Of a stretch of 61,233 nucleotides of DNA, positions 1 to 10,637 are shown piece after piece. A model generated the notes under the pieces. That model had not been told where the DNA came from. It made no database searches and worked only from the letters and a program-made list of their open reading frames with translations. The DNA is from Candidatus Acidiferrales bacterium. Lineage in GTDB: Bacteria > Acidobacteriota > Terriglobia > Acidiferrales > UBA7541. Made by a program: the position numbers and the translations under genes. The stretch's first letter is position 1. Every line of letters begins with the position of its first letter. Location of the stretch: NCBI GenBank assembly GCA_035272605.1, contig DATEQM010000016.1, positions 1 through 61,233 on the forward strand, read 5' to 3'.

Positions 1-290
1 GACCAACCTCTCAAAGCCGTGTGACCAGCCTTACCGAGCGCATGTCGTGTACAGCGATAGTTTGTTGTCGCGAGGGGTCATTTGTGAGTGCACAGAAGCA
101 GATTCCGCCCGAGGTTAGGCGAAGCCCGGAAGTTTGGGGAAAGCTTCGCTAGAGAACGCGGTGTCCGTGTACCCGCCGTGTACCTCAGTTGGGCGTTCGT
201 GACGTTTTTGCCGCTTGTCGCGGAACCTAGAATCAGTAAGTTACGCCGAATGAATGGTAGGATTGGGTTCGAATCCCACCCTCTCCGCCA
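1..290 (+). ncRNA. ssrA: tmRNA (ssrA), 3' portion; the 5' end lies outside the window
   Basis: Ends in a tRNA-like T-arm plus acceptor 3' strand, gggttcgaatccc-a-ccctctcc-g-cca (264-290). U70-C71-C72 fits a G3:U70 alanine-identity acceptor. No complementary 5' acceptor strand (ggRgagg) occurs in 1-260, so this is not a normal tRNA. Segment ~232-262 (taagttacgccgaatgaatggtaggat) resembles, from memory, the stretch preceding the T-arm in E. coli tmRNA. No tag ORF identified; the discriminator is G rather than the usual A. Confidence 0.5.
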
Positions 291-635
291 GTTTGATGTT
301 ATTTCCGGACTCGAAAGCGGGTAGCCTGGGTCTTTTTTCTGTGGCTCGCTGCGCTCACCAGGCGGGCTCCTGGGTTCCCCGCTGCGGCGGGCACCCTCTC
401 CGCCAGATTGAAACTATTGCCGGAATCGAAAGCGGGTGGCCTGGGGCATTTTTCTGTGGCTCGCTGCGCTCACTGGGCGGGCTCGTGGGTTCCCCGCCAC
501 GGCGGGCACCCTCTCAGCCAGTTTGATGTTATTTCCGGACTCGAAAGCGGGTAGCCTGGGTCTTTTTTCTGTGGCTCGCTGCGCTCACCGGGCGGCCTCG
601 TGGGTTCCCCGCCACGGCGGACACGCTCGCCGCCA
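291..635. repeat. Three tandem 115-bp repeats (291-405, 406-520, 521-635), each ending in a copy of the tmRNA 3' terminus (caccctctccgcca or a variant)
   Basis: Direct reading: the terminal 'cca' recurs at 290, 405, 520 and 635, an exact 115-bp period. Units 1 and 3 are nearly identical in their 5' halves (gtttgatgttatttccggactcgaaagcgggtagcctgggtcttttttctgtggctcgctgcgctcacc); unit 2 is diverged. The ORF track shows the same peptide (MLFPDSKAGSLGLFSVARCAH) twice as a consequence. Confidence 0.92.
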
Positions 636-1161
636 GTTCCATCGCCCTTAGAGACGGAACCCCGACAAATTGTAAATCCCTAATTCGACTGTGTTTGCTC
701 GCGTAACAGCTTGGCAGCGGCGGGCGAGTGCAAGCTGAAAATTCCCCTTGATCCAAAGCTGCCGGACTCGGCCGCGTCGCTCACATGGGGGTGTGACCTT
801 CATCACCGCGCGACATGTGCCTGCATGGTACTTGAGGAAGTGGTTTGGCGGCGATTATGTTGGACGCTTCGGATAGTCCAGACGCGTCGCTCCGTGTCAG
901 ATTCGGGCGGAGTGCCGCAGTCAAGAGCACTAACCAGTGGACGCTGCGAATGCATCCGCGTCCAACCTACGGTGTTGCCTTCCCCTTCCTGGCTTCCGCC
1001 CTTACGACGAGCACCCGCGAGCCACAAAGCCCCCCGGCCAGAACATTCCCGGTGCATTCGTTCGCGGCGTGCGGCCAGCCGACTACGTGTGATCTAGGCC
1101 AAGATTGTCTGGAGGCTCGCAACACTCTCTTTGGGCTCAACTTTCGGGAGAGGAGATCCCT

Positions 1162-3201
1162 ATGAAGATTCGAACCATTATGCTTGTCCTCGTCCTGCTC
1201 CCCATTCTTGTGGGGGGAGGATTCGTGCTGGCACACCAGCCAATGAACGCTCCCGTAGTGGGCATTCTGGGAGCGGTGATGATCTGGCTGGCGTACAGCG
1301 GTTACGCGCGGTGGATTGACAGCAACGTCATCGAGCCAGACGCGAAGAAAGCCACGCCGGCGAAAATGTACATGGACGGAGTGGACTTCATGCCCACGGG
1401 CAAGAACATTCTCTACGGCTATCACTTCAAGTCCATCGCCGCTGCGGGGCCCATCGTGGGGCCCATCGTTGCAGTGACTCTGTGGGGCTGGCTGCCATCG
1501 CTCATCTGGCTCACCTTGGGGGTCACTTTCCTGGGCTGGGCGAGCGATTACTCGGCCATTATGGTGGCGGTCCGCAACGATGGGAGGTCGCTCTCGGCCA
1601 TCGCGCACCACCTGATCGCGCCTCGCGCGCGGACCATCCTGTTTGTGTTCATCTTCTTCTACCTGTTGCTGCTGGCCGGGGCCTTTGTGGGCATCATGGC
1701 CGGCATTTTCGACCCGCGGGCAGACGTGCCGTTCGGCATCTTCATGCTGGCGATAATGGGCTTGCTCATGGGTCAAATGCTCTACCGCTGGAAGATGGAT
1801 CTGATTCTGGTGACGTTGCTGGCCGTGGGCGTGACTCTGGGCTCCATGGCGATTGGCGCCATGGGTATCACTTCTGCAAAGGGAACCACGCCGGATGGGA
1901 AGCCTGCCACCGCGCTGGTTTTTGCCGGACCAATCAACTCGATTGTGAACAAGCTCGATGACGGGGTCAACGACCTGAGCGGCGGGCGCGCTCTCTACAC
2001 CGTGGTGGACCCCACCAAGTCCGACCCGCGGCTTGGAGTTCAGACGATTACCAGCCAGGGGCAAGTGGTGCCGAAATACAGGGACCCGAGCGGCGCCATC
2101 AAAATGCTCCCCTCTTTCCTGTTCTGGTGTTTTTTCATTTTTGCCTTCTCCTACCTGGGCACGGTATTGCCGATTTGGCGTTTTGCCCAGCCGACCAACT
2201 ACATCGGGTTCTGGGTCACGTTCCTCACCATTGGGTTTTCCGCGCTGGGCGCTGTTATCGGCGGCCTCCGCGGCCTATTTGGGAATGCGGAAATGTGGAA
2301 CGCGGTGACTTTCCATTCGGCGGCCTTCCTGAGCTGGATGCCCACGACGAAGGCTGCGGGCCAGGCCTGGCCGGCGATTCAACCCATCTGGCCGATGCTG
2401 TTCGTGACCATCGCCTGCGGCGCCATCTCCGGATGGCACTCGCTGGTGGGCTCGATTGGAACGGCGCGGCAGCTGGAGTATGAAACCGATGCGCTGCCGG
2501 TGGGCGGCGGTGGCATGTTCTCGGAAAACGCACTGGCGCTGCTTTCTCTGGTGGCGGTCTGCATCGCGGGCGGCACCGGAGCAGGCGCTTTCGCGGGTGG
2601 CGTGGGCAAACTGCTCGGATTGGCCACCTTCGGTGGGATCCCACCGGCCTACGGGGCCGCGCTGGGATTCGGAGTATTCGTGGTGATCGTGCTCACCATG
2701 GTGCAGCTCGTGTTCCGGGTAATGCGCGTGACCCTGGGCGAATGGCTGGGCGATGCCTGGGTGGGATTCAAGAACGCGCACGTTGCGGCCATCCTTTCCA
2801 TGGCCCTCACGCTGCTACTGGTGTTGAGCGGCACGTGGATCTACCTGTGGCAACTGTTCGGCGCCTCGAACCAACTGATGGCGGCGCTGGGACTTCTGAT
2901 CGTCTGCCTGTGGCTGCGGGCTGAAGGGCGCAACCCGCGTTACGCGTTCTGGCCCATGCTGTTCATGTACGTGACGACCATGGCGGCCATCCTGGTGACG
3001 GCATACAACCTGTACGCCAGCATCCTGACGAATCCGGCGATTGCCGCCGAACCGGTGAACTATATCGGAGCGATCGCCATGATCATCGTGGCGCTGCTGT
3101 TGTTCGCCGCGGCAATGGTGATCGCCTATGACGCATGGCACGCCTGGCACCGGCCGAAGCAACTTGCGGCGCCCGTACCCATGCGTGCCGCGGCCGACTA
3201 G
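1162..3201 (+). CDS. cstA: Carbon starvation protein A (CstA family peptide/pyruvate transporter)
   Basis: Polytopic membrane ORF with the CstA signature GYHFKSIAAAGPIVGPIVA. ATG at 1162 is preceded by the RBS gggagaggag. The upstream part of ORF 1105..3201 is unlikely to be coding. Confidence 0.9.
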   Translation: MKIRTIMLVLVLLPILVGGGFVLAHQPMNAPVVGILGAVMIWLAYSGYARWIDSNVIEPDAKKATPAKMYMDGVDFMPTGKNILYGYHFKSIAAAGPIVGPIVAVTLWGWLPSLIWLTLGVTFLGWASDYSAIMVAVRNDGRSLSAIAHHLIAPRARTILFVFIFFYLLLLAGAFVGIMAGIFDPRADVPFGIFMLAIMGLLMGQMLYRWKMDLILVTLLAVGVTLGSMAIGAMGITSAKGTTPDGKPATALVFAGPINSIVNKLDDGVNDLSGGRALYTVVDPTKSDPRLGVQTITSQGQVVPKYRDPSGAIKMLPSFLFWCFFIFAFSYLGTVLPIWRFAQPTNYIGFWVTFLTIGFSALGAVIGGLRGLFGNAEMWNAVTFHSAAFLSWMPTTKAAGQAWPAIQPIWPMLFVTIACGAISGWHSLVGSIGTARQLEYETDALPVGGGGMFSENALALLSLVAVCIAGGTGAGAFAGGVGKLLGLATFGGIPPAYGAALGFGVFVVIVLTMVQLVFRVMRVTLGEWLGDAWVGFKNAHVAAILSMALTLLLVLSGTWIYLWQLFGASNQLMAALGLLIVCLWLRAEGRNPRYAFWPMLFMYVTTMAAILVTAYNLYASILTNPAIAAEPVNYIGAIAMIIVALLLFAAAMVIAYDAWHAWHRPKQLAAPVPMRAAAD

Positions 3202-3214
3202 GCAAGAACTCTGG

Positions 3215-3242
3215 CGGGGCGGCGGGCTCGCCGGCCGCCCCG
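3215..3242. terminator. GC-rich hairpin between convergent cstA and the 3248-3892 gene
   Basis: cggggcggc-(10 nt)-gccgccccg, a perfect 9-bp stem in the 46-bp convergent gap. No clear U-tract. Confidence 0.45.
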
Positions 3243-3247
3243 AGGCC

Positions 3248-3892
3248 TCACAGGCACTCGGTAATACGCAGCAGGGTTTGGAAGACCTCAGAAGAAGGGT
3301 GTGTGCGGAGATGGCTAAGCAGCCACTGCACCTCGAACTCTGGCTCCGCGCGGCGCACGGAAAGCCGCACCAGCGGACACCCGGGCAATTCCGCCGCCTG
3401 CAGCGCCTGGGCGGCGGCCGGGGAGTGGCCAGGGGCATAGGCCACCAGCGGCTCAGGGACGGGAAACGGGGTCCACTGTTCCTCGCGGCAACGGTGTTCC
3501 ACACCACGCGCAGACCACGCACGCGGATCCAGAATTTCGAATTGCACCCGAGGCCGGTTACCCAGCGTACCCCGGAAAATGAACAAATCGCGCCGGCCGC
3601 GCCATCGGGCCAGCGCCCACAGCGGAGCGACGTCGCGCGGCTCGAGAACCAGCATCACGACGGCTTGTCGGAACGGCCCTTTGGCGTTTGGGACCTTCAA
3701 TTCCACAACCGAGCTGCCCAGCCAGTGCAAAGTCGTTTTCTCGCCGATCAGAGGAAGGCCGTCCTGCAGCCAGCGCATCCAGGCGTGCCCTTTGCGGACG
3801 TTTATCTGCGTGCCGGCGGCAAACCAACCGACCACCAGCAGAACCACAAAGATGAACACAATGAGATTCGGGGACATGGAACCGCCGCGCAT
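3248..3892 (-). CDS. Hypothetical single-pass membrane-anchored protein
   Basis: 214-aa ORF with N-terminal hydrophobic helix NLIVFIFVVLLVVGWFAAG followed by a soluble domain; no family recognised. Start may be the downstream Met (MSPNL, 3877). Divergent from the small-protein/ArsA-like cassette with only ~30 bp between starts. Confidence 0.5.
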   Translation of the reverse strand: MRGGSMSPNLIVFIFVVLLVVGWFAAGTQINVRKGHAWMRWLQDGLPLIGEKTTLHWLGSSVVELKVPNAKGPFRQAVVMLVLEPRDVAPLWALARWRGRRDLFIFRGTLGNRPRVQFEILDPRAWSARGVEHRCREEQWTPFPVPEPLVAYAPGHSPAAAQALQAAELPGCPLVRLSVRRAEPEFEVQWLLSHLRTHPSSEVFQTLLRITECL

Positions 3893-3922
3893 CCCGGTCC
3901 GGGAGCGCAGAAACTATATTAC

Positions 3923-4249
3923 ATGTCGCGCCACGCTGCACCCGGGGGCCTCGCCGGCGGGGATCGAGGGAACCGGTCGAAACGCGGCTGGCTCCGGGCG
4001 GTCCGGGAGTTTCTCTACGGGCTGACGGGGTACGAGTTCGAGCGCCAGGCGCTGGAGTTACGGGGCGAGCTGGAGTCCGCCTTCATGCTGATCACCCTGG
4101 GAGACATGCTGGGTGTCCCGGTGGTTCCTCCGTTGTATTCGCTGCGGATCCTGCCGTATGTGGTGCCCCAGATCGCTACCTGGAAACGGCGGGTGATGCA
4201 GGAACGAGACCTGGCAGACAAAGAGGAGTTCCATTTGCACGGCGTTTGA
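3923..4249 (+). CDS. Small protein, paralog 1 of the 4323-4616 product (polar N-terminus, conserved hydrophobic C-terminal core)
   Basis: C-terminal part of ORF 3128..4249; ATG at 3923. Core FMLITLGDMLGVPVVPPLYSLRILPYVVPQIATWKRRVM aligns almost residue-for-residue with LFILITMGDLLGIPILPPYYSLRLLPYVVPNIATWKRRML in the next gene. No family name recognised. Confidence 0.6.
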   Translation: MSRHAAPGGLAGGDRGNRSKRGWLRAVREFLYGLTGYEFERQALELRGELESAFMLITLGDMLGVPVVPPLYSLRILPYVVPQIATWKRRVMQERDLADKEEFHLHGV

Positions 4250-4322
4250 CAGACCCAGGAAGACCGGCCGCGAGGCCGCGCGGGAGTTCGCGGAGCTCCA
4301 GCCTTCGAACGGGAGAACACGT

Positions 4323-4616
4323 ATGGCGAAAAAAGTGAAAACGGTAAAAAAAGCGAAAGAGGAGAAGGAAGGATTTTTCGGCAAGCTCAAGGAAATCGCG
4401 TACGGGATGAGCGCGCACGACATGTCCCGCTACGCCCTGCGCACGCGGGCCAGTATGGAGCACCTGTTCATCCTGATCACCATGGGCGACCTGCTGGGCA
4501 TTCCCATCCTGCCGCCGTACTACTCGCTGCGTCTGTTGCCGTACGTGGTGCCCAATATCGCCACCTGGAAGCGGCGCATGTTGCGGGAGAAGGATGTGTC
4601 CGACGCCATGTTCTGA
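4323..4616 (+). CDS. Small protein, paralog 2 (Lys/Glu-rich N-terminus, conserved hydrophobic C-terminal core)
   Basis: 97-aa ORF starting with ATG, preceded by gggagaac. Paralogous to 3923-4249 (see that entry). Confidence 0.7.
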   Translation: MAKKVKTVKKAKEEKEGFFGKLKEIAYGMSAHDMSRYALRTRASMEHLFILITMGDLLGIPILPPYYSLRLLPYVVPNIATWKRRMLREKDVSDAMF

Positions 4617-4670
4617 GGTCCGGAGCGTCCCGGCAGAGGGTGCTGGAAGACCGTAGAGAAAGGAAACGTC

Positions 4671-5654
4671 ATGTTACTGCGAGAAGCCTTTGAGAAAGAT
4701 AACGAAAGAAAGTACATCATGTTCGGCGGCAAGGGCGGCCTGGGAAAGACCACCTTCTCCGCGGCCACGGCCTTCTGGCTGGCCCAGCAGGGCCACAAGG
4801 TGCTGCTGTTTTCAGTGGACCCGCAGGCTTCGCTGAGCGACATCTTCAAACAGGACATCTTCGGCAAGGGCGCCGTGAAGATCATGGAAAATCTCTACGC
4901 CCAGGAAATTGACGCCGACAGCCATATCCGCCGCTACCAGGATGAGATCCGCAAGAAGATTCGCGACATGTACGGGATCGACGAGGTGCCGGAAGAGATC
5001 GAACACTACATCCAGGCGGCTTCGGCGGAGCCGGCCATGGAGGAATCGGCCATCTTCGATGCCGTGGTGGACATCGTGGTGGGCGGGGACTACGACTTTT
5101 ATATCTACGACCTCGTGCCGCTGGGCCACGCCCTCTATTACCTCTCCATGGCCAAGGTGTACGACGAATGGATCAACCGCATCACCAAACTGCGCCACGA
5201 AATGCGCGAGCAGGAAGTGATGGTGGCGCGCATCAAGCGCGAGAAGGTCACGGAAGAAGACCAGATTCTCACCGAGCTGGAGTACATCAAGAACCGCATC
5301 AATCAGTCATCGAACATCCTGACCGACCGGAAGAAGACGGCGTTTTACTTCGTGGTGGTTCCCGAAGAGATGATCATTCTGGACACGGCGAAGGCGGCGC
5401 AACTCTTCGCCAAGTTCGACGTGCCACTGGCGGGTTACATAGTCAACCGCGTGCTCCCCGCAGATCTGGCGGGTCAGAACATCCCCCCCTACCTCCAGAA
5501 CCGCCTGAAGATGCAGAACCGCTATCTCGAAGAGATCGACAAGACCTTCGGTGCCCAGGTGGTCGGACGCGTGCCGGAACTGGAACGGGACGTTACCGGA
5601 CTGCCCATGATCGAAAAGCTGGCCGGGATCATGTTCGGCAACGGGAAAGCGTGA
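4671..5654 (+). CDS. ArsA/GET3/TRC40-family P-loop ATPase, cysteine-free, degenerate switch II
   Basis: Deviant Walker A FGGKGGLGKTT, then the ArsA-type VDPQASLSD (canonical DPAHSL). The switch II region reads YDLVPLGH where the canonical form is DTAPTGH. The 327 aa contain no Cys. Confidence 0.85.
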   Translation: MLLREAFEKDNERKYIMFGGKGGLGKTTFSAATAFWLAQQGHKVLLFSVDPQASLSDIFKQDIFGKGAVKIMENLYAQEIDADSHIRRYQDEIRKKIRDMYGIDEVPEEIEHYIQAASAEPAMEESAIFDAVVDIVVGGDYDFYIYDLVPLGHALYYLSMAKVYDEWINRITKLRHEMREQEVMVARIKREKVTEEDQILTELEYIKNRINQSSNILTDRKKTAFYFVVVPEEMIILDTAKAAQLFAKFDVPLAGYIVNRVLPADLAGQNIPPYLQNRLKMQNRYLEEIDKTFGAQVVGRVPELERDVTGLPMIEKLAGIMFGNGKA

Positions 5655-5660
5655 ATAGCC

Positions 5661-6674
5661 ATGAATGAGATCAAAGAATCCATGAACAATTACATCGCCG
5701 CGCACCCCAAGCTGAAGTTCCTGTTCTGCGGCGGCAAGGGCGGGGTGGGCAAGACGGTGATGGCGGGCGTGACCGCTCTGCACCTGGCGCAGGAGGGAAG
5801 ACGGACGCTGCTGGCCTCCACCAATCCCGTGCACAGCCTGAGCGGGCTGCTGGACCAGAACGTGTACGGCCAGCCGACGGCGGTCAAGGGCGTGCCGAAT
5901 CTCTGGGCCTACGAGATTGACACCAAGGAAACCATCGAACGCTCCAAGAAGGACATCAAGGAGAAGATCCGCTGGTTCCTGAAGTTCGCCGAGATCTCCA
6001 CGCAAGCGGATTCGTTTGTGGAGAGCGCCACCATGAACCCCGCGTTCGAAGAATCCGCCATGTTCGAGAACATGGTGGATTTGATGTTCAAAAACGAATA
6101 CGACGTCTACGTTTTCGACACCGCGCCCACGGCCAATGCCCGGCGCCTGCTGGGCATGAGCAAGGTGTATTCCCTCTGGGTCAACAAGATGGTGGAGTCG
6201 CGAAAAGAGGCGCAAACCCTTCGCGAGCTTCTCTCCTTCACGAAGAAAAAAGAGGAAGACCCGCTGATGAAATACCTGCTCACGTTCCGGGACCGCATCG
6301 GGCGCGCGCGCGAGCTGCTGACCGACCCGGAGCTGACCGCCTTCTTTTTCGTCACCCTGCCGGAGGCGCTGCCGATTGCCGTGATCAAGCGCTTCATCCA
6401 GTGGTTCCATGATTTCGGGATCCCCGTTGGCGGCGTAGTGGTGAACATGGTGATTCAGAAGGACCAGGTGCGGGCCGATTCGCCCGAATTCATCAAGAAC
6501 CGTGTGGCCATGCAGGATTCCTACATGCAGGAAATCTTCCGCGACTTCGACAACGTGCGGGCCGTCATTCCCCTGCTGGACAACGAAGTGCGCGGCGTGG
6601 AATCCCTCAAGAAGATGGCGCAGTACGCCTTCCCCGCCGCCGCGGAGCTGGCCGGGGCCAGGGGACCGCGCTGA
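5661..6674 (+). CDS. ArsA/GET3/TRC40-family P-loop ATPase (second paralog)
   Basis: CGGKGGVGKTV Walker A, STNPVHSLS, and switch II FDTAPTANARRLL. The only Cys sits just before the P-loop. Starts 6 bp after the previous ATPase stop. Confidence 0.85.
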   Translation: MNEIKESMNNYIAAHPKLKFLFCGGKGGVGKTVMAGVTALHLAQEGRRTLLASTNPVHSLSGLLDQNVYGQPTAVKGVPNLWAYEIDTKETIERSKKDIKEKIRWFLKFAEISTQADSFVESATMNPAFEESAMFENMVDLMFKNEYDVYVFDTAPTANARRLLGMSKVYSLWVNKMVESRKEAQTLRELLSFTKKKEEDPLMKYLLTFRDRIGRARELLTDPELTAFFFVTLPEALPIAVIKRFIQWFHDFGIPVGGVVVNMVIQKDQVRADSPEFIKNRVAMQDSYMQEIFRDFDNVRAVIPLLDNEVRGVESLKKMAQYAFPAAAELAGARGPR

Positions 6675-6892
6675 ATGAATCGCGGCCGCCCGTCTCGCTA
6701 GGCCGTACAAGGGAACCGCGCTTAACACGTCTGTTCCTTTCCGGAGTCGCGCACCGGCCGAGCGGTCATGGAGAAAGGCCCTGTTCCAACCGGAAACGCG
6801 CTGTTCCGCGCTGCAACCTCCCATTCCTGTCCTGAATTGAAACATTCCGCCTAACCGCCTGTGGATTCAACCATTCGCCCGGCTGGGTGGAA

Positions 6893-6908
6893 CGGCATGC
6901 GGCTTGCA
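6893..6908 (+). promoter_or_regulatory. Candidate sigma54 (-24/-12) promoter
   Basis: cGGCATG-cggc-TTGCA against the consensus TGGCACG-N4-TTGCW, with correct GG-to-GC spacing (GG 6894-95, GC 6906-07). Lies ~23 nt upstream of ATG 6931, with a ggag RBS in between. A sigma54-dependent activator is encoded two genes downstream. Confidence 0.55.
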
Positions 6909-6930
6909 CTCTGATGTGCCGGAGTCCAAC

Positions 6931-7278
6931 ATGGAAAACCAACTCTCGGTTTATCGCGTGGAGATATCAGGCTGGGACCTCAATGAGCAGTTCTTCGTGG
7001 AACGCGCCGCGCTGGAGTGGAGCATCGGCGAGCAGAAGACGGTACTGATCCACCGGCGAGCTCGTCAGGGTGCGCTCTTGTTCATTCGCCTGCTCGAAAA
7101 TTCCGCTCCTTCGCGCACGTTTCCCGTGGCCTACCGGGTGCGGGAGATTCGCGAGCGGGAGGACGGAAGTGGCTATGAACTGATCCTCAGTCAGGTGTGG
7201 CCTGCTCCGGAAGGGCAGAACCCCGGGGGAACGGCCCTGTTCGATGCCGCGTGCGGCCGAAGTCTGGGTTTGAACTAG
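6931..7278 (+). CDS. Hypothetical protein, degenerate PilZ-like paralog of the 8952-9356 product
   Basis: VEISGWDLNEQFFVERAALEWSIGEQ aligns with VEVYGFDRQGHYFTERTVTLNVSSGG of the downstream PilZ protein, but lacks the RxxxR motif and has EWSIGEQ in place of NxSxxG. Confidence 0.55.
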   Translation: MENQLSVYRVEISGWDLNEQFFVERAALEWSIGEQKTVLIHRRARQGALLFIRLLENSAPSRTFPVAYRVREIREREDGSGYELILSQVWPAPEGQNPGGTALFDAACGRSLGLN

Positions 7279-7434
7279 GAGGTGCGGCGCTCCGCCTAAA
7301 CCCTGCCCTCTTGCCGCCCCACGATAACCGAATCAACTTCAAAATTGCCCCGCCGCGCATTCCGCAAAATCCACCGCCGGCCGATTGAAGGTTCGCGGCC
7401 CTCCGCCGATATAGGTGGAGAGAGGTACGAAGAA

Positions 7435-8913
7435 ATGGCGGGGATCGAACTCGCCTCGGGTGTGCCATTGCAAGCCTTGCGCGCTTCTGCCAGCCGCGAA
7501 AAGCGCGCGGGCCTCTCTGTCTGCGTGCTGGACGACGACAGCGCACTGGTATCCGCAGCCGTCGAGCTACTGGAACGTCTGGGATTCCCCGCGCGGGGAA
7601 CCACCGAGCCGGGAGAAGCGCTCGCGGCGGTCCGGGAAAGGCGCTGCCGCGCGGTGCTGAGCGACGTGCGCATGCCGGGGATGGACGGGCTGGAGTTTCT
7701 GGACCAGGCGCTGAAGCTCGATCCCACCCTCGAGGTTCTGCTGATGACCGGCTTCTATTCGATTGACGCAGCGATTGAAGCGATTCGCCGCGGGGCGCGC
7801 GATTACCTGACGAAGCCCTTGGAAGCCCCGCGGCTCGAGCGCACGCTGGACGAAATCGCGGAGCAACACGCGCGGCGGCGGCGATTGCAGGCGCTGGAAG
7901 AGACGTTGCTCGCCGAGCTGAGCCTCCACGGCATCGTGGGACAAAGCCCGCAGCTCGTGGAAATGATCGAGCTGATGCGTAAGGTCGCGCCGCACTTCAA
8001 AAACGTGCTGGTGATGGGAGCGACAGGCGCGGGAAAAGAGCTGGTGGCCCGGGCCCTGCACCAGATGAGCCCGGTGGCCGCCGAGCGCTTTGCCGTGTGC
8101 AACTGCTCGGCCCTGGTCGAGTCCCTCCTGGAAAGCCAGCTTTTCGGCCACGTCCGCGGCGCGTTTACCGGAGCGACGGAGATGCGCGCCGGACTGTTTG
8201 AATTCGCCGACGGCGGCACGGTGTTCCTCGACGAAGTGGGTGAGATGTCGCCCGCGCTGCAAGCCAAGGTTCTCCGCGTGATCGAGAACCGCGAAATCCA
8301 GCGGGTCGGCTCGCCGGAGCTGCGCCGTGTGGACGTGCGCCTGGTGGCGGCCACCAATCGCGACCTCCGCGCGGAGGTGATCGCCGGACGATTTCGCGAG
8401 GATCTCTACTACCGCCTGAGCACGATGGAAATTCGCGTGCCTTCGCTGGCGGAGCGCGCCGGAGACATTCCGCTGCTGGCCCAGCACTTTCTGAAGAAGT
8501 TCACGCAGGCCTACGGCCGGCCGCTGGGAGGCTTCACGCGGCGAGCCATGGCGCGCCTCGTGGGCCACTCTTGGCCCGGCAACGTGCGCGAACTCGAGAA
8601 CGTCATCTCGAGCGCGTGCATCACGGCGGCCTCGGACACAATCGACCTCGAAGACCTTCCGGAGAGCCTGCGGCGGCCGGCGGCCGACGCCCGGGCGGAG
8701 ACGGGCTGGCGTCCGCTGACGCTGGAGGAGGTGCGGCGGGAACACATCGAACGTGTCCTGGAGACCTGCCAGGGCAACCGGCTGCGGGCGGCGCAGATGC
8801 TCGGAATCGGACGGACGAGTCTCTACCGGTTCTTGAAGCGCAGCGCGCGCGCGGGACGGCAAAAGAGCGCGGGCGGCGCTTCCGCGGCCACGCTCAAGGG
8901 AAAATCGAGCTGA
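7435..8913 (+). CDS. Sigma54-dependent Fis-family response regulator (NtrC-like: REC-AAA+-HTH)
   Basis: REC (VLDDDSAL...LSDVRMPGMDG), Walker A GATGAGKE, ESQLFGH, the GAFTGA loop, and a C-terminal Fis-type HTH (NRLRAAQMLGIGRTSLYRFLK). ATG at 7435 follows ggtggagagagg. Confidence 0.9.
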   Translation: MAGIELASGVPLQALRASASREKRAGLSVCVLDDDSALVSAAVELLERLGFPARGTTEPGEALAAVRERRCRAVLSDVRMPGMDGLEFLDQALKLDPTLEVLLMTGFYSIDAAIEAIRRGARDYLTKPLEAPRLERTLDEIAEQHARRRRLQALEETLLAELSLHGIVGQSPQLVEMIELMRKVAPHFKNVLVMGATGAGKELVARALHQMSPVAAERFAVCNCSALVESLLESQLFGHVRGAFTGATEMRAGLFEFADGGTVFLDEVGEMSPALQAKVLRVIENREIQRVGSPELRRVDVRLVAATNRDLRAEVIAGRFREDLYYRLSTMEIRVPSLAERAGDIPLLAQHFLKKFTQAYGRPLGGFTRRAMARLVGHSWPGNVRELENVISSACITAASDTIDLEDLPESLRRPAADARAETGWRPLTLEEVRREHIERVLETCQGNRLRAAQMLGIGRTSLYRFLKRSARAGRQKSAGGASAATLKGKSS

Positions 8914-8951
8914 GGAGCGCCGCTGCTGCTCCGAGGCGCAAGAGGGACGCC

Positions 8952-9356
8952 ATGACCACGCAATCCACGGGCAACGCGACGTCCTCCACGCAGTGGGAGG
9001 AACTCACCGCCGAGACCCAGCGAGACCGCCGGCGGGAGCCGCGCCTCAAGCTTCCCTTCCCGGTCGAGGTGTACGGTTTTGATCGTCAGGGACACTACTT
9101 TACGGAGCGCACGGTGACGCTGAACGTCAGCTCGGGAGGATGCATGCTCGAGCTGAAGCATCACCCGGACGACGAAGGCGTGCTGGCCATCCGCCGGGTG
9201 ACGCGCGACGGCGCTCGCTCCGCCGAACACAAGCCCGTGCTCTTCCTAGTCTGCTGGAGCCATAAGATGCCGCGCCGCTGCCTGGTGGGAGTGAGCAAGC
9301 TACAGTCCGGCGAAATGTGGGGACTCACCATGCCGCAGGAACATACCGGAAATTGA
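8952..9356 (+). CDS. PilZ domain protein (putative c-di-GMP receptor)
   Basis: RRREPR (RxxxR) followed ~25 aa later by NVSSGG (D/NxSxxG). ATG at 8952 lies within the frame of ORF 8571..9356. Confidence 0.75.
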   Translation: MTTQSTGNATSSTQWEELTAETQRDRRREPRLKLPFPVEVYGFDRQGHYFTERTVTLNVSSGGCMLELKHHPDDEGVLAIRRVTRDGARSAEHKPVLFLVCWSHKMPRRCLVGVSKLQSGEMWGLTMPQEHTGN

Positions 9357-10210: not shown

Positions 10211-10532
10211 GCGTTCCTCCTGCCCCGTGACGTGGGGCCAACGCTGGCGCTGCGGTAGAGTTGCGGAGGAAACCGACATCTACAGTACCGGGATGGGCGG
10301 CCGAGGGGGGGAGAAAAGTGGAGGCGAAGTTTCCAACTGGACACGGGATGCCGGGGGAACTCGGCGCTACGAGTTCCCGTACTCGCCCTTCGCCGAGCGC
10401 CGGGCACGCGGGAGAGCACCTTACCGGCGCGGCTGCCTGAAATTACCGTGGTACACTCGGCACAGTTGCCGCTCGCGGGAGTTCCGAATCCCGAACCGTC
10501 GGGAAGGGGACCGGACCGGCGAGCCCGATCGT

Positions 10533-10637
<105 letters not shown>

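Follow-up and report, generated by a model that had tools for sequence, protein, structure and literature searches.

In the 61,233-nucleotide stretch of contig DATEQM010000016.1 of Candidatus Acidiferrales bacterium (Acidobacteriota) analyzed here (the window), two small paralogous genes are followed by two paralogous genes for ATPases of the ArsA/Get3 family (ArsA1 and ArsA2). This 2+2 cassette belongs to a six-gene module that also contains the genes for a CstA-family permease and a single-pass membrane protein (p214). It adds a new bacterial case, in which components are duplicated, to a type of gene cluster that Castillo and Saier had described in silico in 2010 (Int J Microbiol, PMC2963123). 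Among the readings weighed below, the best, which we favor tentatively, is the proposal of these authors, in which the module would encode an ATP-coupled CstA transport complex.

A conserved six-gene module around a CstA-family permease

The original prediction, which described the 2+2 cassette and a divergently encoded membrane protein, overlooked a conserved partner. The gene for a CstA-family permease (Pfam CstA, E = 1e-94; ca. 34% identity with BtsT of Escherichia coli over conserved blocks) lies 46 bp beyond p214 and is the most informative of the conserved neighbors. A scan of species-representative genomes found relatives in at least 591 genomes, and the best 80 loci were used for comparison. 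These came from metagenome-assembled genomes (MAGs) labeled Acidobacteriota/Terriglobia, Chloroflexota/Anaerolineae, Gemmatimonadota, Planctomycetaceae, Actinomycetota, Binatia, Stellaceae, Deltaproteobacteria, and the Patescibacteria group. The order CstA (+), p214 (−), small protein 1 (+), small protein 2 (+), ArsA1 (+), and ArsA2 (+) was found in nearly every one of the 80 loci that had enough flanking sequence; it contains the small–small–ATPase–ATPase order whose conservation the original prediction had proposed to examine, and the membrane protein that it had named as a possible receptor. All six proteins were complete in 55 of the 80 loci, from several phyla, and orthologues of small protein 1 occurred in 78. 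Across the 55 loci (one duplicate removed), the pairwise distance matrices of the six proteins correlated with r = 0.79–0.88. The median identity to the window proteins was 84% for small protein 2, 79% for both ArsA1 and ArsA2, 64% for CstA and small protein 1, and 47% for p214.

The core of the module (CstA, two small proteins of the DUF7990 family described below, and two ATPases) was also kept in three rearranged architectures. In L084, the CstA gene is located downstream on the opposite strand. In L088, the genes form a single co-directional operon with a p214 homologue (E = 1e-30) downstream. In L092, they form an operon in which the first DUF7990 protein is fused to a CxxC thioredoxin-like domain, a fusion present on four contigs. 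p214 was not seen in L084 and L092, where the flanks are short. The survival of the linkage through rearrangement is strong evidence for a shared function, and both duplications, that of the small proteins and that of the ATPases, predate these distant variants. A possible exception to the CstA linkage is L046 ('Candidatus Aquidulcis'; 4069–6331), which carries small protein 2 and both ATPases; in ca. 4 kb of upstream flank, neither CstA nor p214 nor small protein 1 is detectable.

Several loci carry additional genes. A third DUF7990 gene directly follows ArsA2 (a 3+2 arrangement) in many loci of Anaerolineales and other Chloroflexota (L041, L042, L044, L059, L062, L063 [10290–10553], L065, L066, L068, L069, L071, L075–L080, and L082). 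The distant variants encode an extra protein of ca. 100–130 amino acids (aa), mostly with an N-terminal CxxC (L092:8001–8675, L088:7631–8014, L084:518–877, and L090:136–444), which is absent from the window and which in L092 is the part fused to the first DUF7990 protein. Identification of this ca. 120-aa CxxC protein as ArsD-like was not supported, a weak Thioredoxin_3 match (E = 0.004) being all that was obtained. In a Chloroflexi MAG (L001:4964–7883), the DUF7990 genes are separated by those for a PocR/GAF histidine kinase and a GerE-type response regulator, which may hint at how the module is regulated.

An asymmetric pair of ArsA/Get3-family ATPases

ArsA1 and ArsA2 each consist of one Pfam ArsA_ATPase domain (E = 3e-74 and 3e-69, respectively), are 34% identical to each other, and score 236 and 228 bits with the NCBIfam model TIGR00345 (TRC40/GET3/ArsA; cut-off, 135 bits), so their earlier assignment as paralogous members of this family holds. 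Both keep the deviant Walker A motif (GGKGGLGKTT in ArsA1 and GGKGGVGKTV in ArsA2). ArsA1 has no cysteine and ArsA2 has one, Cys23, beside the P-loop, as had been counted before; 69 of 72 ArsA1 and 65 of 71 ArsA2 orthologues have none. The Cys triad of ArsA and the CxxC motif for zinc-mediated dimerization of Get3 are thus absent from both ATPases. The CxxC motif is also missing from archaeal Get3 homologues.

Canonical ArsA, that is, an arsenite/antimonite pump ATPase with its ars partners beyond the window, would account for the Pfam matches, and the left edge of the window is just 1.1 kb from the CstA gene. However, both proteins are single-domain and ca. 330 aa long, lack the cysteines as described above, and score far below the cut-offs of the ArsA equivalog models TIGR04291 and NF041417 (107 and 114 bits vs. 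650, and 133 and 138 bits vs. 800). No ars genes (arsR, arsB/acr3, arsC, or arsD) were found among the window neighbors examined, including those downstream, or in the annotated flanks of three related contigs, and Castillo and Saier reported none from any cstA-type operon (PMC2963123). A role in arsenic resistance, which the original prediction had already rejected, is effectively refuted, and the label 'arsenical pump-driving ATPase' can be dropped for these genes. In a Korobacteraceae locus (L031:1571–3562), an extra ArsA2-like open reading frame (ORF) of ca. 660 aa, probably a two-domain ArsA homologue, is located ca. 1.2 kb upstream of the CstA gene.

The two ATPases differ at catalytic positions. 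ArsA1 has SVDPQASLSD, with the switch-I Asp intact, and switch II YDLVPLGH, invariant among ca. 70 orthologues. ArsA2 has STNPVHSL(S), with Asn at the switch-I Asp position in at least 90% of ca. 70 orthologues, and switch II FDTAPTAN. The same Asn occurs in the distant variants L084 and L088. The corresponding Asp of Get3 (D57 in yeast) is needed for hydrolysis. Since the Asn and the paralogy are shared with distant variants, the ATPase duplication and the degenerate site are both ancient. The difference in switch II (DLVPLGH vs. DTAPTAN), from which an asymmetric pair had first been proposed, is real and conserved across orthologues, and the switch-I change makes the asymmetry stronger than claimed. 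To judge from these motifs, ArsA2 is likely the hydrolysis-deficient protomer of a heterodimer; ArsA1–ArsA2 would then have one catalytic and one degenerate site, in principle like the non-equivalent halves of ArsA.

Among solved structures, the closest to both ATPases were 3ug6/3ug7 and 3zq6 (E = 1e-52 to 1e-60; for 3ug6, 3e-60 with ArsA1 and 3e-56 with ArsA2). Their database label is 'arsenical pump-driving ATPase', but we take 3ug6/3ug7 to be the Get3 homologue of Methanocaldococcus jannaschii and 3zq6 that of Methanothermobacter thermautotrophicus. The next were Chlamydomonas ArsA1, E. coli ArsA (1e-33 to 1e-34), and eukaryotic Get3 (ca. 1e-21 to 1e-32). In alignments, both ATPases contain a region resembling the TRC40 insert, with amphipathic helices. 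Their helical subdomains have 5 and 7 Met, compared with 13 in M. jannaschii Get3, and ca. 35% charged residues.

The pair also resembles BagA and BagB, and the ATPases might be a BagAB-like, nucleotide-dependent regulatory switch or stress-protection device that gates, stabilizes, or quality-controls the CstA permease, or protects against a toxic metabolite, without energizing transport or inserting proteins. A protomer with a degenerate catalytic residue is typical of switches, the small proteins have distant relatives in the actinobacterial cory-CC-star family (see below), and weak matches to BagA, BagB, and the BagAB structure (6bs3) were obtained. These matches are very distant (39–53 bits with NF053622 [BagA] and NF053621 [BagB], whose cut-offs are 400 and 521; E = just 1e-5 to 1e-9 with 6bs3, compared with 1e-60 for archaeal Get3), no link of BagAB to CstA is known, and the mechanism of BagAB itself is unknown, so that this reading explains little. 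We consider it improbable.

Two small DUF7990 proteins with a predicted hydrophobic hairpin

Small proteins 1 and 2 are, as originally noted, adjacent paralogues (51% identity and 78% similarity over 80 aa, E = 5e-34). Since the similarity covers 80 residues, it extends into the N-terminal helix beyond the shared C-terminal core described earlier. Clustered at 90%, the homologues of small protein 2 number more than 5,500, and the family comprises 441 clusters at 50%. Against orthologues in related loci, the ratio of nonsynonymous to synonymous substitution rates (dN/dS) was 0.03–0.1 for small protein 2 and mostly 0.05–0.2 for small protein 1, reaching 0.40 in the most distant locus, with synonymous divergence from 0.5 to saturation. 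Because dN/dS is low at nearly saturated synonymous sites, the high amino-acid identity reflects constraint, not recent transfer. Strong purifying selection, which the original prediction required of these ORFs, is evident, as it is for the ATPases and p214, and the small ORFs are real genes, far beyond chance.

No named family had been recognized for the small proteins, but one can be assigned to them from their homologues. All listed homologues of small protein 2 at 76–98% identity carry the precomputed Pfam assignment PF25952 (DUF7990). Neither small protein gave a Pfam match even at E ≤ 10 in the Pfam set scanned, because PF25952 was absent from that set and not for want of a family. The NCBIfam model NF041419 (cory-CC-star) gave 30 and 35 bits against a cut-off of 80 (small protein 1, E = 3e-7), and all 61 diverse DUF7990 members tested also matched it below the cut-off (best E = 4.5e-12), indicating that DUF7990 is homologous to the cory-CC-star family but not part of it. 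Neither small protein contains a cysteine, and the C-terminal Cys-Cys presumably implied by the name of that family is absent. As set out in the last section, the small proteins also fit the published description of CstX.

Family-wide, G55, G59, P61, and P73 are invariant and G28, Y67, R70, P77, and W82 nearly so; the consensus is GDxLGxPxLPPYYSLRLLPYxxPxIxxWKRR. Two subgroups are distinguished by their C-termini, ...DAMF or ...DALA in proteins like small protein 2 and a conserved ...HLHG[VLI] in those like small protein 1. An AlphaFold2 model of small protein 2 (predicted local distance difference test [pLDDT], 69) has a helix at 4–58, a loop at G59-IPILPP-65, and a helix at 66–96, predicting a helical hairpin with a hydrophobic, Pro-rich tip (G59-IPILPP-Y66). 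In this model, hydrophobic residues flank the turn, with the conserved D56 on one arm and the conserved R70 on the other. The hydrophobic stretch, which contains a conserved Asp, an Arg, and five Pro, ends at WKRR and is followed by a highly charged tail of 15–25 residues. The best 19-residue segment had a Kyte–Doolittle (KD) value of 1.6, and the summed Hessa energy for the small proteins was +6.8 to +7.1 kcal/mol; at about +7 kcal/mol, the segment is not a spontaneous transmembrane (TM) helix. Because both ends are polar and charged, a re-entrant or protein-embedded hairpin appears more plausible than a tail anchor.

A Foldseek search with the small-protein model gave no meaningful match. 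An apparent tandem DUF7990–DUF7990 fusion occurs in the metagenomic protein P0001. Two other apparent fusions were set aside: P0285 (CstA C-terminus::DUF7990), which if genuine would argue for physical contact of CstA with the small protein, could not be traced to a contig and its junction resembles intergenic read-through, so it was not used as evidence, and P0289 (DUF7990::ArsA1) looks like an assembly deletion and was ignored.

The membrane protein p214 and its predicted fold

p214 has one strong N-terminal TM helix (KD, 2.68; Hessa, −2.8 kcal), in agreement with its earlier description as a divergently encoded single-pass membrane protein. The gap of ca. 30 bp given for the divergent genes needs correction if translation starts at Met6 (position 3877), as an alignment of homologues suggests; p214 would then be 209 rather than 214 aa long and the gap 45 bp. 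To judge from the positive residues that follow the TM helix, p214 would be oriented N-out, C-in. None of its 627 homologues has a Pfam domain. Cys172-Pro173 is invariant in the 26 aligned homologues and absent from the distant homologue in L088; in this lineage, no cysteine but Cys172 is conserved in the four non-permease accessory proteins.

The AlphaFold2 model of p214, built from 26 sequences (pLDDT, 90; predicted TM-score [pTM], 0.84), has a helix at 8–42 that includes the TM segment, followed by an alpha/beta domain. The helices at the end of the model are short, and a long coiled coil is absent. A Foldseek search of the PDB gave E < 1e-3 for only three chains, 7tm3_4, 9i78_4, and 6w6l_7 (E = 1e-7 to 8e-4, probability 1.0), with query-normalized TM-scores of 0.50–0.63; the best was 7tm3_4 (E = 1e-7, TM-score 0.63). 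All three entries are ribosome–translocon complexes. CCDC47 residues 76–447 are modeled in 9i78 (PMC12572126), which fits the length of its chain 4 (371). By exclusion, 7tm3_4 and 6w6l_7 would also be CCDC47, the shared single-pass component of matching size. At the sequence level, neither p214 nor ca. 25 homologues matched the Pfam CCDC47 model (PF07946), even at E ≤ 10, and the p214 alignment, used as a profile against PDB sequences, retrieved only noise. Given the lack of similarity to PF07946 and the CCDC47 parts that p214 does not have (see the last section), we regard the match as a lead at the level of the fold, not as evidence of homology.

Possible targeting and insertion of the small proteins

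The original prediction proposed a Get3-like targeting or insertion module. In such a system, the ATPase heterodimer would shield the DUF7990 hairpins in a composite groove and deliver them to the membrane with p214 as receptor or scaffold, and the inserted proteins would then become CstA subunits. The archaeal Get3 homologues that are closest to the ATPases speak for this; at least one such homologue binds tail-anchored proteins, according to a review (PMC6593721). So do the TRC40-insert-like region with its amphipathic helices, the 2+2 stoichiometry, and the small proteins themselves, whose hydrophobic segment lies in the C-terminal half and in which signal peptides are lacking. The topology and predicted fold of p214 are those of CCDC47, a component of the multipass-protein biogenesis machinery of the endoplasmic reticulum, which lends some new support to the picture of a Get3-like ATPase with a membrane-bound receptor.

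On the other hand, the hydrophobic element is no classical tail anchor, given its invariant Gly/Pro pattern, Asp56, Arg70, and charged tail, and the supposed clients are more conserved than any other part of the module, as clients seldom are. Nor is it parsimonious to dedicate a machine of two ATPases to a pair of proteins of 100 aa. The helical subdomains contain fewer Met than that of M. jannaschii Get3 and are highly charged, no gene for Get1/Get2 or an Oxa1-type insertase is present in the module, and p214 was not seen in two rearranged loci (both with short flanks). The idea of a client in a Get3 groove fits poorly with the slow evolution of the small proteins and their non-classical hydrophobic segment, and a stable coupler or subunit fits better. 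We regard insertion as unlikely, though somewhat less so than the BagAB-like switch. In reviews, the function of single-domain bacterial and archaeal Get3/ArsA homologues is given as unknown, with no tail-anchor role shown in bacteria (PMC6593721).

A bolder version would make p214 a true prokaryotic relative of CCDC47 and the module a forerunner of eukaryotic membrane-protein biogenesis, in which the Get3-type heterodimer would hand the DUF7990 hairpins to p214 and so assemble the CstA complex. This is a long shot, more doubtful than either of the two alternatives above. If it were true, related archaeal 'Get3' proteins would act in a CstA-linked context, not in general tail-anchor targeting.

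Proposed ATP-coupled transport by a CstA complex

In the reading that we favor, ATP-coupled CstA transport, the 2+2 cassette would be the cytoplasmic or accessory half of the module. ArsA1 and ArsA2 would form an asymmetric dimer in which ArsA1 is catalytic, while the ArsA2 site, with its Asp-to-Asn change, may bind nucleotide and hydrolyze it poorly. Each DUF7990 protein would dip its hydrophobic hairpin tip into the cytoplasmic leaflet or the permease, and its polar helix ends would reach into the cytoplasm, each protein binding one ATPase protomer. As ATP drives the dimer to close and open, these movements could then be coupled to the CstA-type permease, as ArsA makes ArsB an ATP-driven pump, with p214 as an auxiliary membrane scaffold. 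Judging by the family, the system may transport a small organic anion, for example pyruvate, or peptides.

The small proteins are the slowest-evolving components, with the 84% median identity and dN/dS of 0.03–0.1 of small protein 2, as expected of a multi-interface subunit and not of a chaperone client. Together with the strict 2+2 paralogy, the linkage to the permease, and the ArsA–ArsB precedent, this slow evolution fits a stable complex with the small proteins as couplers. The family-wide conservation of the degenerate ArsA2 residue, as read from the alignments, also counts in favor of the coupled complex.

Several points weigh against it. The analysis shows gene content, co-conservation, paralogy, motif changes, and predicted folds; that the proteins form a physical complex, that it is coupled, and which way it transports are inferred. 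In the window, CstA is its own transcription unit, convergent with p214, and the characterized CstA and BtsT are proton symporters without an ATPase. With the ArsA cysteines absent, no ligand-binding site can be named in the ATPase sequences, whose closest solved relatives appear to be archaeal Get3 homologues (by the identities that we assign to them) that reportedly bind tail-anchored proteins, not ArsA. By the Hessa scale, the small proteins make poor autonomous TM helices, and their embedding in the membrane is itself presumed. Finally, the CCDC47-like fold predicted for p214 points to membrane-protein handling, not transport.

Locus layout and flanking sequence

The coordinates of the six genes are listed in Table 1; the ArsA1 and ArsA2 genes are 6 bp apart.

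Table 1 Genes of the CstA module in the window.
Gene product	Position	Strand	Description
CstA-family permease	1105..3201	+	698-aa ORF from TTG; likely true start ATG 1162; outside the interval of the original prediction
p214, 'CstY'-like	3248..3892	-	N-terminal TM anchor, then ca. 185-aa domain, presumably cytoplasmic; probable start Met6 (3877)
Small protein 1, DUF7990, 'CstX'-like paralogue a	3923..4249	+	108 aa
Small protein 2, DUF7990, 'CstX'-like paralogue b	4323..4616	+	97 aa
ArsA1, single-domain ArsA/Get3-family ATPase	4671..5654	+	327 aa
ArsA2, paralogous ATPase	5661..6674	+	337 aa

Downstream of ArsA2 are a 124-aa ORF (6904–7278), a sigma-54-dependent response regulator gene (7345–8913), a PilZ-domain ORF (8571–9356) whose frame overlaps the end of the response regulator gene, and DnaX. 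The 124-aa ORF had no Pfam match even at E ≤ 10; besides the window, L004 and L009 alone have it conserved next to the module. A tandem repeat with a 115-bp unit (3.1 copies, 87% match) occupies 277–638, upstream of the CstA gene, and accounts for the repeated peptide motifs in spurious ORFs there; no Rfam family or tRNA matched it. An Rfam scan of 1–7500 and a tRNA scan of 1–8000 returned nothing, and a scan for promoters and terminators gave counts not above those of shuffled sequence.

Comparison with known systems

The module is very widespread, and few gene sets of soil Acidobacteriota and Chloroflexota are as strongly conserved. It is a compact, defined system in which to ask whether a Get3-type ATPase can energize a carrier other than ArsB or handle small membrane proteins; the degenerate ArsA2 site offers a clear experimental handle, and the CCDC47-like fold of p214 is an unexpected evolutionary lead. 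We consider it a good experimental target, not a categorically new system.

The archaeal Get3 homologues, with the identities assumed above, are like the window ATPases in being single-domain, with a deviant Walker A motif, no CxxC, and an insert of similar length after switch II. They are homo-oligomers studied as binders of tail-anchored proteins, whereas the window has an obligate paralogue pair, one member of which lacks the catalytic Asp; the window ATPases also have fewer Met and a fixed linkage to CstA and DUF7990. With eukaryotic CCDC47, of the PAT complex in the multipass translocon, p214 shares a single TM helix, in a presumed common orientation, followed by a cytosolic alpha/beta globular domain predicted to have the CCDC47 fold. 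Unlike CCDC47, p214 has no lumenal N-domain or ribosome-binding C-terminal latch helices and no sequence-level similarity to it, and no Asterix-like partner was detected; the match is one of a predicted model with experimental structures.

E. coli ArsA–ArsB is the template for the transport reading: ArsA, which is of the same ATPase family and has two non-equivalent nucleotide sites, docks onto the secondary carrier ArsB, which thereby becomes an ATP-driven pump. ArsA differs in that its two halves are fused in one polypeptide of ca. 580 aa, with a Cys triad that binds metalloids. ArsB is not related to CstA, counterparts of DUF7990 and p214 are lacking in ArsAB, and the ars regulators are absent here. 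BagA/BagB of Mycobacterium tuberculosis (Rv3679/Rv3680; 6bs3) are, like the window pair, two adjacent Get3-like ATPase paralogues with no arsenic role, and they reportedly interact. They differ in their very low sequence similarity, far below the NCBIfam cut-offs, and are not known to be linked to CstA.

The E. coli btsT–yjiX–yjiA genes are a precedent for the grouping in the window, with a CstA-family permease, a small accessory protein, and a P-loop nucleoside triphosphatase (NTPase); similarly, cstA–ybdD encodes a CstA-family permease with a DUF466 small protein. The NTPase YjiA, which we take to be of the SIMIBI class, is a COG0523-type GTPase, unlike the ArsA/Get3 ATPases of the window. 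BtsT, a CstA paralogue, is a pyruvate:H+ symporter, and mutant co-fitness has led to the proposal that CstA-like proteins need the DUF466 proteins (such as YjiX and YbdD), which end in Cys-Cys, in order to transport pyruvate. A profile comparison (hhalign) of DUF7990 with YjiX (DUF466) gave no homology (probability 0.3%), which makes the E. coli system an analogy only.

The closest precedent is the set of cstA–cstX–(cstY)–arsA-homologue operons found in 26 genomes by Castillo and Saier (PMC2963123). There, CstX is ca. 90 aa long with one hydrophobic segment, is sometimes duplicated, and never occurs without CstA; CstY, of ca. 210 aa with one transmembrane segment, was found in five archaea only. 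The ArsA homologues are single-domain proteins of ca. 330 aa, with adjacent paralogue pairs, 25–31% identical, in two organisms. The authors showed co-evolution of the components and proposed that the ArsA homologue energizes CstA, with CstX as a linker or coupler. We found no experimental follow-up of this proposal in the searchable literature.

The window has the same combination of a CstA permease with single-domain ArsA homologues of ca. 330 aa and no arsR. Its DUF7990 proteins (97 and 108 aa), accompanied by CstA wherever the flank allows except apparently in L046, match CstX, and p214 (209–214 aa, one TM helix) matches CstY, by size, topology, and context, in a comparison with the published descriptions rather than with sequences. 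A search from a divergent, Lys/Glu/Ile-rich DUF7990 member returned unnamed metagenomic proteins only and no named archaeal CstX. The CstY counterpart is here bacterial and widespread, in contrast to the five archaea of the earlier set, which did not include Acidobacteriota or Chloroflexota carrying the module. Beyond that description, the conserved degenerate switch I of ArsA2, the hairpin model of the small proteins, the CCDC47-like fold predicted for p214, and the module's wide occurrence and conservation among soil phyla are new here.

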